Source of the DNA: a virus
DNA length: 64,000 bases
Reading direction: 5' to 3' (one strand)
IMG/VR virus record: IMGVR_UViG_3300033145_000788
Coordinates: 1 to 64,000 of that record
Within the stretch, counting starts at the first letter, position 1. Each line of letters begins with the position of its first letter. The position numbers and the translations under genes were made by a program. The notes below the pieces were generated by a model. It searched no databases. It saw only the letters and a program-made list of their open reading frames with translations, and was not told the origin of the DNA. This document shows, in pieces, positions 5,148 through 55,113 of the stretch.

Positions 5148-5666
5148 ATGAACAGACCGGATACAATTATCATACATCACAGCGCGACTAAGGATAATCC
5201 GGACTTGGAGGACGCTAGAGCCATATTGAGATACCATGTCAAGGAACGGGGGTGGTCCGACATCGGATATCATATCGTGCTTGAAAAACAGGACGGCAAT
5301 TCGAGGGTGTTTCCTGGGAGGCCGGACTTCAGGCCGGGGGCACACGCTCCGGGCCGTGGCGGGATGCCTTCCCATAATTCCCGTTCGATAGGGATATGCG
5401 TAGTCGGGAATTATTCCAAGGAGACCTTGCCTACCGATATGCTTGTTACCCTGGTCCGGGTAGTGTTCGAATATATGAAAAGATTCCTGATCCCTCCGGA
5501 CAAGGTTCTCGGGCACCGGGAAGTCATGCCACCGGGATATACCGAGTGTCCGGGGAACCGATTTCCCTTGGATCCGTTGAAAAAACAACTTACTCGCAAA
5601 TGGCAGATTTGGGTCCAGGCCGCCCTGAACGGGCGTGAAGATATAATCGAAGACATAACTAAGTGA
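5148..5666 (+). CDS. Endolysin, N-acetylmuramoyl-L-alanine amidase (T7-lysozyme/Amidase_2 type)
   Basis: IIIHHSAT, GWSDIGYH, GAH, HRE and TECPG zinc-amidase motifs. Confidence 0.92.
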   Translation: MNRPDTIIIHHSATKDNPDLEDARAILRYHVKERGWSDIGYHIVLEKQDGNSRVFPGRPDFRPGAHAPGRGGMPSHNSRSIGICVVGNYSKETLPTDMLVTLVRVVFEYMKRFLIPPDKVLGHREVMPPGYTECPGNRFPLDPLKKQLTRKWQIWVQAALNGREDIIEDITK

Positions 5667-5679
5667 AAGGAGAAAGAAG

Positions 5680-6627
5680 ATGACACAATTAGGAAGGGAA
5701 GAGAAAAGGAATTTCGTTTTATTCGTTGTTGGTTTTTTGGCATTTATCTTATTTTTCGTCGGACTCTGCGTGTGCTGCAGGGTTAGCCAGGCTGAGGAAA
5801 TTGAGAAATGGAATACGGTCGCCCCAAAAATAGATCGAATGGCAGAGATTAAGGCAATTCACGAAAAGCTTATTTATCCTTGCGTCAGGATTGCAGGTGC
5901 GTATGGCGGTGGTTCTGGAACGGTACTATATTCTAAATTAGAAACAGATGAAAAATATTCGACTTATGTGCTGACTAATTATCACGTTATAAGATCCGCC
6001 GTAACATTAAGCGAACAGTGGAACAGCGATCTCGGTAAGAATGTCAAGACGGAGAAACGGTCCGTGGTTCACGTAGAAGTTTTCCAATATCAGGATCTTT
6101 CAATTCCGGTTGGGACTTTAAAGGTCGAGGCAGATATTATTATTTATAGCGAGGAATACGATCTTGCTCTTTTGAAATTGAGATATGATAAACGAATAGA
6201 ATTCACAGCGAACCTTGCTAATCCGGAGCCGGATTATTATCTATCTGACAGGACAATAGCAGTGGGATGTAGCCTGCTTTTTCCTCCTATCCTGACTTCC
6301 GGAGAGATCACTAGAGTCAACCTCTTAGTCAACTCTCTTTATTACGATATGAGTACATCGCAAATCATCTTCGGAAACTCCGGTGGGGCAATGTATCTGG
6401 CCAAGACCGGAGAATTTATTGGAGTCCCGTTTGCCGTACCTGGTGTTCGGATAAATTGGACGACTTCCATACCCGTCACCCATATGGGTGTATTCATTCC
6501 AGCTAGTCGGGTTTATGAATGGTTGGAGAAAGAGCATTACGATTTCATCTATGACAAAGATAAGATCGAAAAGGCCTGTTTGGAAGAACGTGAAGAGGAA
6601 CTTAAGAAGAAGCGAGAGAAGAACTGA
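5680..6627 (+). CDS. Trypsin-like serine protease with N-terminal membrane anchor
   Basis: Catalytic triad motifs TNYHV, DLALL, GNSGG; hydrophobic N-terminus. Confidence 0.88.
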   Translation: MTQLGREEKRNFVLFVVGFLAFILFFVGLCVCCRVSQAEEIEKWNTVAPKIDRMAEIKAIHEKLIYPCVRIAGAYGGGSGTVLYSKLETDEKYSTYVLTNYHVIRSAVTLSEQWNSDLGKNVKTEKRSVVHVEVFQYQDLSIPVGTLKVEADIIIYSEEYDLALLKLRYDKRIEFTANLANPEPDYYLSDRTIAVGCSLLFPPILTSGEITRVNLLVNSLYYDMSTSQIIFGNSGGAMYLAKTGEFIGVPFAVPGVRINWTTSIPVTHMGVFIPASRVYEWLEKEHYDFIYDKDKIEKACLEEREEELKKKREKN

Positions 6628-7043
6628 TGTCAATATGGTCATGGATTGCTAAGAAGGCAGTTGGGGAATCTGCTGTTACTTTGGTTGATACGATTGATAA
6701 AATCGTAGATAAGTATACAGAGAGCCCAGATGAGAAACGGACTTTCCGGGAGGTCATCAATCGTGCCCAAACAGAAATTAATAAGATTGAAGCTGGGCAC
6801 CGGAGCCTGTTCGTGGCCGGGTGGCGGCCGGCAATAGGTTGGACTTGTGCAATCGGGGTTTTTTGGATCTTCATCGGAGAGCCAGTACTTCAATACATTC
6901 TAATTGCATCTGGAATTCCGATTCCCCCGCCACACTTAGATGCCGAGCAACTCATCAAGCTCACTTATGCGCTCTTGGGAATCGGGGGAACCTCTATTAT
7001 CGTGAGGACCATTGAAAAGAAAATGGGCGTGAATGGTAGATGA
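6627..7043 (+). CDS. Holin, 3TM (GTA-holin-like)
   Basis: FVAGWRPAIGW motif, TM segments, RTIEK near C-terminus. Confidence 0.82.
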   Translation: MSIWSWIAKKAVGESAVTLVDTIDKIVDKYTESPDEKRTFREVINRAQTEINKIEAGHRSLFVAGWRPAIGWTCAIGVFWIFIGEPVLQYILIASGIPIPPPHLDAEQLIKLTYALLGIGGTSIIVRTIEKKMGVNGR

Positions 7044-16108: not shown

Positions 16109-16360
16109 GTGATGTCTGAAGAAAATCAAACGGAGAAAAGCATAGCGGAGCATTGGGATGATTTGAAGAAAGAGGACCAATGTACAAGACAAGCCGAGGA
16201 ATACTGGAATAATCTAGATATGGAAGACTCTATTTTTGTTGACAATAAGAAATTAAAAGAAGTCATCACCGGGGTTTTCCGAACAGGGTATACAAAAGGA
16301 TATCTTGATGGAATAAGATATGCGATGGAAAGATTCCAGACTGAGCTCAAAATCCTATGA
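16109..16360 (+). CDS. Hypothetical protein
   Basis: SD AAGGAG; GYTKGYLDG motif. Confidence 0.6.
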   Translation: MMSEENQTEKSIAEHWDDLKKEDQCTRQAEEYWNNLDMEDSIFVDNKKLKEVITGVFRTGYTKGYLDGIRYAMERFQTELKIL

Positions 16361-16674
16361 CCATTCTAATGTTCGTCCGACCAAAAGGAAGTCTCTGACT
16401 GGCCTGTGAGGACGCCCGCCAGTTAGGTTGGCTATTGGAAAGACACGGATTTGATATTAAGATTCTTGAACTTGAAACCCCTGCGGGTTTGATGGAGGCG
16501 GCCTGGGAGGAACTGATAGGGGATGACGATTTTCTCTTTCCCACCGTTTACATCCCCGATCCGTCTAGATTACTGAATGGTCAGGGGAAAATGTGGAAGG
16601 GGGAAGTCCCAAAATTTGAGGAGATATGGGAGGCGGAGAATGACCAGATATTTTATACAACAACCTTTCGATGA
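16357..16674 (+). CDS. Glutaredoxin/thioredoxin-like protein with in-frame UGA (candidate selenocysteine, U-L-A-C)
   Basis: ATGA overlap at 16357; MTILMFVRPKGSL-TGA(16396-16398)-LACEDARQLG...ETPAGLMEAA...FPTVYI...WKGEVP, in frame with track ORF 16435-16674. Confidence 0.7.
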
Positions 16675-48152: not shown

Positions 48153-48638
48153 AATAATTCATACGCCTTATGCCCATGTAGGCCATATTCATAAATGTGG
48201 CTGTTTTACTGATCAGTATAAAATTTTATTGGCTAATCAAGGAGAACATATTATGGAGATGGCGGTGTGTAAATGTGGGGCGGCATATGAATGGGCTGAA
48301 GTTATTACGTTTGCTTTTTTTGAATGTTATGATTGTGGTAGAGCGGCAAGATGAGAGGAAAGGAGAATGAAAAATGATTTATCTTGATGCCCAAAGGGCG
48401 GCGGAAAGATTTGCCCCGATTTTTGAAAAGATGGGGTGGACGTGGAGGGGGAAAGATGGGAATCATTATGTTCCTCTTGAAGCACAAATTTGTCAACGAT
48501 TAATCCAGTTGAGAAGTGATATTATTTCTGATGATTGTCTAATGAGTGGTACTGGGAGATTAGAAGCTGTTAAAATGGATAAGGAACGAATTTGTTTTAG
48601 ATTAGACCCTGGAAGCGAGAGTGAGTGGGATAAACAAT

Positions 48639-49763
48639 ATGCCGGATAACGACAAAATCACGGAATCGGTAATCATCCATCTGATTGAGACCTATGGCAA
48701 CTTGGCGAACCAGCAGAGGTTTAATCTGGCCAAGCATTGCGTAAGGACCGGCCAAATAAACAGGGGCCACAGTCAACTTATGAAGGTTTTGGAAAACAAT
48801 TCAAATCACGTTGAGGCCAGAAGGTTAATGGAGCTGATGCTCTTTGGGCCAGTGTGGCCGGTGCAGTTGTGCATCGAGCCGACAAACGAATGCCATGTCG
48901 GATGCCCTGGATGTGGGGGCCGGGACGGGGAGATCGGATACATGGACCTGGACCTCTTTAGGACTCTAATGTTGGAGGTCGCCCCGCATCTCCGGATTCT
49001 GGCCCTACATAATCGGGGTGAGTCGTTTCACCATCCTAAGATTTATGACTTCTTGGATGTAGTCGGACAATTCAAGCATATTTCAACATACATCCATACG
49101 GCCGGGCATCTTCCCTTGGATGCTGAGAGGATAGTCCGGGCTCAGGTGCCGACAGAGTTAGTGTTTAGCCTTGATGGGTTTACGGAGAAGACGCATAGGA
49201 AGTATAGAATCGGAGCCGACTTCCAAATTGCGATAGACAATATCAAGAGACTGAAGAAGGAGAAGCGTAAGCTGAACGTTGATAAGCCGAAGATCGTCTG
49301 GAAATATATTATGATGGGAACGAATGAGCGTGAGGTTAGGCAGGCGATGGGGTTAGCAGCCGAACTCGGATGCGATGAGTTCCGGATGGCCCCTTTTGCG
49401 GTTGGGTGGAAGACGATAGAGGGCAAGGTGGATGCCTATTTGAAGAAGTTTCTGCCTTCAGATGATAGGAATCTGAGGAATGACCGTGAGGCTTTGATGC
49501 AGGGAAAGATTGTAAAGGCGGGAAGGAAGCCGGGCGAGCCGTTTAATTGTATGGTGGTGCATAACTCGACCGCCATCCGGTGGGACGGGAAGGTCTTGCC
49601 CTGTTGCAATTGCCTTGAGCCGTATCAGCAGGTCATGGGGGTGTACGGGCCGGGGATGAAGTTCAAGGATATCTGGGATAGTACCGGGTTCCGGTCGTTC
49701 CGGAAGGCGGCTGTCTTGGATGCCAGGAGGCTGAAACCTTGTAGCATGTGCCATATGATTTAA
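48639..49763 (+). CDS. Radical SAM/SPASM protein with N-terminal TPR-like helix pair
   Basis: EPTNECHVGCPGC (CxxxCxxC), GES, SLDG, SPASM C..IRWDGKVLPCC..CSMC. Confidence 0.9.
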   Translation: MPDNDKITESVIIHLIETYGNLANQQRFNLAKHCVRTGQINRGHSQLMKVLENNSNHVEARRLMELMLFGPVWPVQLCIEPTNECHVGCPGCGGRDGEIGYMDLDLFRTLMLEVAPHLRILALHNRGESFHHPKIYDFLDVVGQFKHISTYIHTAGHLPLDAERIVRAQVPTELVFSLDGFTEKTHRKYRIGADFQIAIDNIKRLKKEKRKLNVDKPKIVWKYIMMGTNEREVRQAMGLAAELGCDEFRMAPFAVGWKTIEGKVDAYLKKFLPSDDRNLRNDREALMQGKIVKAGRKPGEPFNCMVVHNSTAIRWDGKVLPCCNCLEPYQQVMGVYGPGMKFKDIWDSTGFRSFRKAAVLDARRLKPCSMCHMI

Positions 49764-54277: not shown

Positions 54278-54619
54278 GACTGAAATCACCCTTGAGATAA
54301 CGCAATTTAGGACGAAATGCTTAATCTTAGGAAGAAACACCTAAAGGGGGAATGAGATGGCTATTGAAATAAAATTAAAGCCGTGTCCGTTCTGTGGACA
54401 TAAAACACCTGATTTAAAATTTAGAGCGGTAGGATATTCATCAACGGGATATGAGGTTTTTGTTCTTTGTTCACTTTGCAGGACTAAAGGACCCTCTGCC
54501 CAAAATGAAGAATGGGCCATTGAAAAATGGAATGAGAGGGTTAAAGATGTCTGACGACCAAAAACTCAAAGCTGAAAATAGACGCCTCAAGACTGAAATC
54601 ACCCTTGAGATAACGCAAT
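54278..54619 (+). repeat. 29-bp perfect direct repeat (54278-54306 and 54591-54619)
   Basis: GACTGAAATCACCCTTGAGATAACGCAAT twice. Confidence 0.9.
54357..54554 (+). CDS. Lar-like (restriction alleviation) zinc-ribbon protein
   Basis: LKPCPFCG..CSLC..AIEKWNER. Confidence 0.75.
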   Translation: MAIEIKLKPCPFCGHKTPDLKFRAVGYSSTGYEVFVLCSLCRTKGPSAQNEEWAIEKWNERVKDV

Positions 54620-55113
54620 ATTGTCCTTGGGAGTGTATCTATTGTTCCTCTAATGCAGGGCCGGACGGGGAACACTTATCCTTTGAACAAATTGAAAAAT
54701 TTCTTGATGATAACGTAAAGTGGCCTCCGGCCAGGGTAATTAACATCAGTGGCGGTGAACCCCTGGCTCATCCCGATTTTTGGAAAATCCTGCAATTAGC
54801 ACAAGCAAGGGCTCGTTATGTGTGGGTTTATACTAACGCCCTAACCCACATCAGGTTCAATGCCGACATCATTGACGGGATAGAGTGCCATGCGAATGTC
54901 ATCTTGCGACCGGGTTCCCAAATTCCTATCAAGGCAGACGAAGTACATCTTCTAAAACTGGTTCCCCAGGGCCGAGCCAAGAATCTACCTCAGATGAAAT
55001 TTCATGTTTCGGGAAACCTGACCGGAAGCTGTGATGACTGTGACCATATTCTCTTGCAGGCGGACGGCAAAGTGGTCAAAGGTCCATGTAGAAAGGAATA
55101 TGAGGAGGATTAG
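54547..55113 (+). CDS. Short radical SAM protein
   Basis: EITQYCPWECIYC, SGGEPL, YTN, QGRA. Confidence 0.85.
   Translation: MSDDQKLKAENRRLKTEITLEITQYCPWECIYCSSNAGPDGEHLSFEQIEKFLDDNVKWPPARVINISGGEPLAHPDFWKILQLAQARARYVWVYTNALTHIRFNADIIDGIECHANVILRPGSQIPIKADEVHLLKLVPQGRAKNLPQMKFHVSGNLTGSCDDCDHILLQADGKVVKGPCRKEYEED

Follow-up and report, generated by a model that had tools for sequence, protein, structure and literature searches.

A TGA codon at the active site of a phage redoxin gene: a candidate selenoprotein related to redoxins of anaerobic ribonucleotide reductase operons

Can a phage carry a gene for a selenoprotein and leave the decoding of its TGA to the host? This question is raised by a short gene in the virus record IMGVR_UViG_3300033145_000788, a 98,976-bp genome with direct terminal repeats that is rated complete; the stretch analysed here (the window) comprises its first 64 kb, i.e., positions 1 to 64,000. 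On the plus strand, at 16357..16674, lies a reading frame of 105 codons and a terminal TGA that appears to encode a Thioredoxin_3-type redoxin with the active site U-L-A-C, in which the first position (codon 14, 16396..16398) is an internal TGA, the only one in the frame. Gene callers report just an open reading frame (ORF) of 79 amino acids (aa) that starts at TTG 16435. A first-pass annotation, made from the letters of the window, had proposed that the longer frame is a glutaredoxin-like selenoprotein gene. Our analysis leads, with moderate confidence, to a similar reading: the gene probably encodes a selenocysteine (Sec) redoxin, the nucleophile of which is specified by UGA and would be inserted by the Sec machinery of the host.

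Reading frame and bacterial relatives

The frame begins as the first-pass annotation had placed it. Its ATG (16357-16359) overlaps the TGA stop (16358-16360) of the preceding ORF (16109-16360), forming an ATGA junction at 16357..16360 on the plus strand. Four-base overlaps of this type make up 11 of the 137 gene junctions in the phage, i.e., the junction is a normal one, and the overlap suggests that translation may be coupled. A strong Shine-Dalgarno sequence is absent before either candidate start (ATG 16357 or TTG 16435), whereas 66 of 89 long ORFs possess one. The in-frame TGA is followed by C and then by the codons CTG GCC TGT, which places it three codons before a TGT (16405..16407, plus strand), again as annotated; this TGT encodes Cys17, the putative resolving cysteine of the UxxC motif (U stands for Sec). 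No further stop occurs until the TGA at 16672-16674. Twelve codons (16399..16434, plus strand) separate the TGA from the TTG; they specify the second Cys as well as the N-terminal half of helix alpha-1. In the whole 99-kb genome, this is the only plus-strand TGA with a Cys three codons on and a long open frame behind it. Because it is unique in this respect and, as described below, aligned with an invariant catalytic Cys, its placement exceeds chance.

General searches left the gene an apparent orphan. A word-indexed search of 5.8 billion proteins returned the gene's own 79-aa call and spurious repeat proteins, and phmmer against 1.84 billion representatives returned no relative beyond the same call and repeat-driven noise. 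No relatives of the read-through protein were found among viral contigs, cultured phages, or PDB sequences, nor among metagenome contigs, whether by protein or by a DNA pattern (N at the third TGA base). Neither the read-through protein nor the 79-aa ORF matched Pfam, NCBIfam, or PHROG at E ≤ 10, and a six-frame search of the phage with PF00462 and PF13192 revealed nothing, i.e., no other thioredoxin-fold gene. The only relative found by way of the helicase (L002) has no counterpart of the redoxin gene. The capsid protein has many relatives (45-60% identity); 20 related phage records reached in this way lack both the gene and any PF00462/PF13192 redoxin, the one weak match among them lying inside a glycosyltransferase-like ORF. 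Viral contigs scanned with the family alignment described below yielded nothing. These searches of the billion-sequence collections were blank because bit scores of approx. 32 could not pass the E-value threshold at that size.

The gene can be placed, however, by a targeted six-frame search of the right bacterial phylum. Five metagenome-assembled genomes (MAGs) from a species collection that contain capsid relatives were searched, and a 90-aa CxxC protein was found beside nrdD in a Desulfobacterales MAG (G023). This first match belongs to a second, more distant nrdD-linked family (12.9 bits by profile); it was dropped as the closest relative when a closer family took its place. The bacterial search covered genomes sampled from three phyla. 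Among 401 genomes of the phylum of the Desulfobacterales MAG, matches were found in 62 at E ≤ 0.05. The best of them (E 1.5e-7 per genome, approx. 6e-5 after multiplication by 401) shows 39-40% identity over residues 13-91, and the matched bacterial ORFs are 85-93 aa long without an internal stop. The same query gave 0 of 602 at E ≤ 0.001 in the other samples (301 genomes of the phylum of a Lutibacter MAG and 301 Planctomycetota). Detectable homologues are thus confined, among the phyla sampled, to that of the Desulfobacterales MAG.

A profile built from 15 bacterial relatives gives the read-through protein 34.6 bits (E 7e-13) when codon 14 is entered as X and 38.3 bits when it is entered as Cys, compared with a maximum of 7.2 bits among 5000 shuffles. 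In alignment A2, the invariant columns are M1, F6, C14 (the TGA), C17, A20, G24, L27, G44, E47, A48, P62, G82, and P85, and W80 is nearly invariant. The protein features that the first-pass annotation had singled out (FPTVYI and WKGEVP) are therefore borne out by P62, G82, P85, and W80; the Pro62 codon, at the cis-proline position of FPTVYI, lies at 16540..16542 on the plus strand. The TGA is aligned with the invariant first Cys of a CPxC motif in 13 relatives, and the C-x-x-C spacing is kept in the profile alignment. The dithiol itself is incomplete, as the first position is a TGA and not a Cys codon while the second Cys is there; it would be complete only if the TGA were read as Sec or Cys. 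The bacterial relatives score 31-32 bits on PF13192 (Thioredoxin_3, cut-off 24.8) and also match, below cut-off, an MJ0307-type thioredoxin model. By alignment, the frame clearly resembles this redoxin family downstream of the TGA and, through the invariant M1 and F6, apparently also upstream of it.

These scores bear directly on the simplest alternative, namely that the 79-aa ORF from TTG 16435 (P0002, 16435..16674, plus strand) is the real gene, the upstream 78 nucleotides (nt) being a spacer with a 13-codon leader and the UxxC a coincidence. Prodigal-type calls do yield that ORF, a weak AGG stands 7 nt upstream of its TTG, and coding-potential statistics for the 78 nt (16357-16434) give no signal either way. 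However, the ORF alone scores 22.8 bits, and residues 1-26 (with X at 14) bring approx. 12 bits more; the profile-aligned region begins at residue 16, and the family homology in residues 15-26, upstream of the TTG, includes the invariant second Cys. Moreover, the ORF comprises the C-terminal three quarters of the redoxin; a thioredoxin fold that lacks strand beta-1, half of helix alpha-1, and the active site could not serve as a redoxin. No promoter- or terminator-like site occurs between 16360 and 16435. The profile scores thus largely refute this alternative, to which we give almost no credence. Because the conserved active-site helix is encoded directly after the TGA, with no start codon between the TGA and the conserved stretch that follows it, the gene, as far as this alignment goes, does not begin at TTG. 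Homology after the TGA without an intervening start, in turn, leaves two options: either this codon is translated or the gene is defunct.

Structure prediction is in agreement with the profile. AlphaFold2 supplied with the alignment, on which the model rests with 14 rows, gave a predicted local distance difference test (pLDDT) score of 82.6 and a predicted template modelling (pTM) score of 0.74. The model has a beta-alpha-beta-alpha-beta-beta-alpha order (E2-7, H15-29, E33-38, H42-50, E63-66, E78-81, H87-103), in which helix 15-29 begins directly after residue 14 and strand beta-3 starts at residue 63, next to the cis-proline. Its top Foldseek matches in the PDB are all thioredoxin-fold proteins (probability 0.95-1.0); a single-sequence AlphaFold run reached a pLDDT of 42, and its Foldseek matches were meaningless. 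The ESM Atlas model of the 79-aa ORF resembles Thioredoxin_3/Glutaredoxin clusters of 84-102 aa with a TM score of 0.52-0.60, and its best named feature matches are also Thioredoxin_3/Glutaredoxin; at these levels, both count as no more than leads. Furthermore, when compared by hhalign with a profile of NrdH-like proteins from phages and E. coli, the candidate aligned in the canonical register with a score of 20.6 (P 0.003), which lies beyond the 99th percentile of 300 shuffles. Judged by profile and predicted fold, the gene product belongs to the thioredoxin-fold redoxins of the Thioredoxin_3 type and has the TGA at its first active-site Cys, which upholds the glutaredoxin-like, thioredoxin-fold assignment made at first pass. 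As a separate observation, the nearest named ESM Atlas clusters to P0002 are 'thioredoxin family' proteins of 61-66 aa from Nitrospirota and Thermodesulfobacteriota. Such lengths would suit Thioredoxin_3 genes that gene callers have truncated at the active site, and one might speculate that uncalled selenoproteins are among them.

Proposed decoding of the in-frame TGA

Genome-wide recoding of TGA is excluded, since TGA is an ordinary stop in this phage and terminates 42 of its 111 long ORFs. Codon 14 is apt for Sec because it is the sole codon at which a Sec replacement would be chemically meaningful. By our estimate, approx. 40 single-base changes could create a stop in a gene of this size, and one of them gives the present picture. 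The obvious alternative is that the gene is a recently inactivated CxxC redoxin in which TGT or TGC became TGA (or in which the TGA is a minority variant or consensus error in the assembly), leaving a 13-codon product. Cys codons are only one base away from TGA, and decayed copies of such genes do exist in bacteria: two of 77 matches contain stops, several each. These two (G109:C60:24687-24875 and G348:C52:1045-1242) are second copies of the nrdD-linked Thioredoxin_3 redoxin with two or three in-frame stops (TGA, TAA) and are probably decayed paralogues. For the phage gene, by contrast, a random nonsense mutation at codon 14 is unlikely because it would have had to strike the one codon out of approx. 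40 possible changes and leave the rest of the frame intact: no second lesion is found within 105 codons, and the profile score still stands at 34.6 bits. As phages have compact genomes from which inactive genes tend to be lost fast, the intact frame also counts against inactivation. By a rough Bayesian reckoning, the coincidence of position favours Sec over random nonsense by about an order of magnitude.

It is also conceivable that the UGA is read through independently of selenium, by a near-cognate tRNA (Trp or Cys) acting on a weak UGA-C context, so that a CxxC- or WxxC-type protein would be made at low frequency, perhaps as a means of keeping expression low. UGA-C terminates weakly in E. 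coli; here, the stop is followed by C, coding homology resumes directly past it, and no convincing Sec insertion sequence (SECIS) is present. However, a read-through signal would not be expected at the one residue that is replaceable by selenium, and Trp at the nucleophilic position would abolish activity. We know of no case of such read-through at a redoxin active site and consider this alternative very unlikely.

The RNA downstream of the UGA is where a Sec signal should be sought, and the first-pass annotation had pointed to two hairpins there. Both can form. In the minimum-energy hairpin (16396..16425, plus strand, -13.6 kcal/mol), the UGA lies in the stem, UGACUGGC pairs with GCCAGUUA, and an inner GUG/CGC stem carries an AGGA loop 10 nt past the UGA. 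The other, GCCAG/UUGGC at approx. +25, belongs to a stem-loop at 16404..16448 (plus strand, -9.7 kcal/mol), the apical hairpin of which (16418-16432, plus strand) has a GCCA/UGGC stem and a GUUAGGU loop (16422-16428) at a distance of 23 nt from the UGA. In the bacterial SECIS model, the loop lies 16-37 nt after the UGA (PMC13188914). This second stem-loop is accepted by our own implementation of the published model, which asks for a loop of 3-9 nt with G in its first two positions, a stem of 4 bp or more, a spacing of 16-37 nt, and an energy of -7.5 kcal/mol or lower. At first pass, the fit of the hairpins to canonical SECIS geometry had been called imperfect. In addition, the first 30 nt past the UGA are 67% G+C, i.e., the 95th percentile of the genome. 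A G+C-rich region after the TGA that is able to form a model-compatible stem-loop is a further point against simple inactivation.

Several observations nevertheless weigh against decoding as Sec. The SECIS evidence carries little weight, as 24% of TGAs picked at random in the genome pass the model and 16% reach -9.7 kcal/mol, so that the SECIS prediction called for by the first-pass annotation gave a fitting structure with little power to discriminate. The stability of the minimum-energy hairpin is not above chance (z = -0.13 against dinucleotide shuffles; the 53-nt window lies at the 17th percentile of genome windows), and its loop is too near the UGA for the bacterial model; a hairpin no better than chance also speaks for inactivation. 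The 13 residues before the TGA score -2.2 bits alone, being too short to score. The homologue search proposed at first pass did align the TGA with the family's Cys, but all of the full-length bacterial members (approx. 75, in 72 genomes) carry Cys, which leaves Sec without precedent in the family and favours the nonsense alternative. The first-pass annotation had itself stated that its proposal would fall if all close homologues carried Cys and the TGA proved a lone nonsense mutation or error; the first half of this is what the bacterial relatives show. A second TGA-bearing copy was found in none of the protein databases, viral, metagenome, and phage collections, 20 related phage records, and 401 + 602 bacterial genomes, which likewise suits inactivation, and the collections searched contain no close relatives of the gene or of its phage region. 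Finally, a phage-borne tRNA-Sec, SelA, or SelB can be rejected, as genome searches found none of them; tRNA and Rfam scans of the phage revealed no tRNA at all and no Rfam match.

Decoding would accordingly have to depend on the infected cell. MAG G023 and the four genomes that hold the closest homologues were examined for Sec genes; all five have SelB and four have SelA. A Sec-using, anaerobic host, as imagined in the first-pass annotation, would fit these data and the occurrence of homologues in anaerobic reductase operons. Taken together, we lowered our estimate for Sec because there is a single TGA-bearing sequence with a weak SECIS, and still prefer the selenocysteine redoxin as the probable reading; recent inactivation appears to us unlikely, though clearly less so than read-through by a near-cognate tRNA.

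If the gene does encode a selenocysteine redoxin, its expression could proceed as follows. Translation would start by coupling at the ATGA overlap. When the ribosome arrives at the UGA, its footprint would have melted the 5' arm of the stable hairpin (16396-16425), and the GCCA/UGGC hairpin, whose loop contains GU and lies 23 nt past the UGA, would thereby be freed to form and to recruit SelB. SelB, tRNA-Sec, SelA, and SelD of the infected cell might then insert Sec at codon 14.

A possible link to the anaerobic ribonucleotide reductase

What the redoxin might do is suggested by the surroundings of its relatives. At all 13 bacterial loci inspected, the redoxin gene is immediately flanked by a long ORF on one side and by an ORF of approx. 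250 aa on the other. Where one locus was checked, the long ORF proved to encode NrdD (PF13597, E 6e-106), and the ORF after the redoxin gene encodes an NrdG2 activase (TIGR02495, 184 bits, cut-off 131). Class III reductases of the NrdD2 and NrdD3 types use thioredoxin or NrdH-like glutaredoxin, respectively, instead of formate (PMC9176816, Table 1). Because of their position between nrdD and the activase gene, the bacterial relatives may, by analogy, be the reductant of the anaerobic reductase; they stand where such a reductant would be expected in the operon, and it is this position that suggests the role of the family.

The same operon slot is filled by two unrelated-looking redoxin families. 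The second is a CxxC family of approx. 82 aa that starts with MTLFTK, has a conserved ALAHLAWHEL, and gives a weak Pfam match (L107:1486-1755 in MAG G023, and L109-L137). Its genes, found in 66 of 301 genomes from the same phylum, are likewise flanked by nrdD and the activase gene.

The phage gene, in contrast, is not part of an nrdD-nrdG operon, and genome searches of the phage revealed no NrdD, NrdG, or class I/II reductase. The genes around it encode a helicase, a zinc-ribbon protein, and two proteins without a recognised family. Since the phage has no ribonucleotide reductase of its own, its redoxin would have to act on host proteins, among which the host class III reductase is the likeliest target by analogy with the bacterial operons. 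Judging from bacterial synteny, the product would pass reducing equivalents to this enzyme during infection, and the Sec form would be the more reactive donor. A broader scenario, which we put forward tentatively and regard as possible rather than probable, is that the phage selenoprotein is a Sec version of the Cys redoxin of the host lineage, serving as a faster donor to the anaerobic reductase and thus yielding more deoxynucleoside triphosphates, and that the change from Cys to Sec is an innovation of the phage.

The phage, its host, and known selenoproteins

The virus is a tailed phage with an HK97-type capsid, portal, and terminase. Its genome has a G+C content of 46%, and long ORFs on the plus strand cover 85% of the sequence. 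It encodes a replisome of bacterial style (a fusion of DnaE with uracil-DNA glycosylase, a beta clamp, a clamp loader, a DnaB-like helicase, and RecA), with a second clamp-like ORF adjoining the beta clamp gene. The redoxin gene lies in the replication module, downstream of a superfamily-2 helicase, a zinc-ribbon ORF, and an 83-aa ORF, and upstream of a 448-aa ORF whose family is not recognised. The polymerase fusion (window 30707-34039) consists of a DNA polymerase III alpha subunit with PHP, NTPase, and finger domains and a C-terminal uracil-DNA glycosylase domain (residues 956-1097); its nearest cultured relatives are Streptomyces phage DnaE proteins, at 36% identity in the polymerase part only. 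Elsewhere, a lysis cassette (window 5148-7043) comprises an Amidase_2 endolysin, a 315-aa trypsin-like peptidase, and a three-transmembrane holin of the gene-transfer-agent type (PF11351). Two genes encode radical S-adenosylmethionine proteins (window 48621-49763 and 54451-55113), both of which are of types often met in anaerobes: one product contains a SPASM domain and most resembles, far below cut-off, a tungsten-cofactor oxidoreductase maturase, and the other product is short (220 aa) and without a clear subfamily. In the closest long relative of the phage (G004), a long and highly repetitive Ser-Pro-Ser-Glu protein (L099:2-1177) adjoins a glycosyltransferase-like gene.

With regard to the host, capsid relatives turn up in bins of four phyla (MAGs labelled Lutibacter, Bacteroidales, Desulfobacterales, and Planctomycetota), and such binning is no reliable guide to the host. 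The contigs concerned (L100-L104) carry capsid genes 38-48% identical to that of this phage, and the 107.6-kb contig in the Lutibacter MAG is probably a whole phage genome. Relatives among cultured phages share less than 37% identity, have mixed hosts, and give no host assignment.

Compared with the nrdD-nrdG-linked Thioredoxin_3 redoxins (approx. 86 aa, CPxC, 72 of 401 genomes), the phage protein is homologous over nearly its full length, at up to 40% identity, and the two have in common the fold, the position of the active site, the cis-Pro, and a C-terminal W-x-G-x-x-P. However, the bacterial proteins have Cys throughout where the phage copy has the TGA, and only the phage copy possesses insertions of 3-5 residues before the active site and around strands beta-3 and beta-4, as well as a C-terminal extension of 15 residues. 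The genomic setting also differs, as the bacterial genes belong to nrdD-nrdG operons and the phage gene belongs to a replication module in a genome without either. The reductants known for class III enzymes (thioredoxin for NrdD2, NrdH for NrdD3; PMC9176816) differ from the phage protein in that the latter, without a reductase beside it, would act on a host enzyme. The NrdH-like glutaredoxins of mycobacteriophages and of Enterococcus, Arthrobacter, and Gordonia phages are likewise small CxxC proteins (72-87 aa), but they belong to PF00462 rather than PF13192, match only distantly, and all have Cys and no in-frame stop.

Sec-containing thioredoxin-fold redoxins are a known kind of protein. In bacteria, Sec forms of thioredoxin (PF00085, UxxC), of glutaredoxin (PF00462, UxxC), and of the PF13192 proteins Sec.1/Sec.2 (CxU/UxC) are established or predicted selenoproteins (PMC13188914). 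They resemble the phage product in being small thioredoxin-fold redoxins in which Sec replaces the N-terminal active-site Cys and in relying on a SECIS within the ORF that is read by SelB. They differ in being cellular and in being supported by several independent Sec sequences or by experiment, whereas here there is a single phage gene; furthermore, the listed PF13192 selenoproteins have CxU or UxC spacing and the phage gene has UxxC. TsoA (NF045695), a LULAxC selenoprotein family, was considered and set aside, as it gave no match and its spacing differs. Phages and viruses go unmentioned in a 2026 review of prokaryotic selenoproteomes (PMC13188914), and the literature searched contains no report of a selenoprotein in a virus of bacteria; a phage-encoded Sec redoxin and a Sec form of the nrdD-linked family are both unreported in that literature. 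More generally, the selenoproteins known so far come from cells and from a few animal viruses.

If the proposed reading is true, phages can exploit the recoding machinery of their hosts for a single codon. It would also follow that gene callers systematically truncate such genes, as has happened here with the loss of the active site, and that redox genes of this kind in phages may serve as markers of Sec-using, anaerobic hosts.

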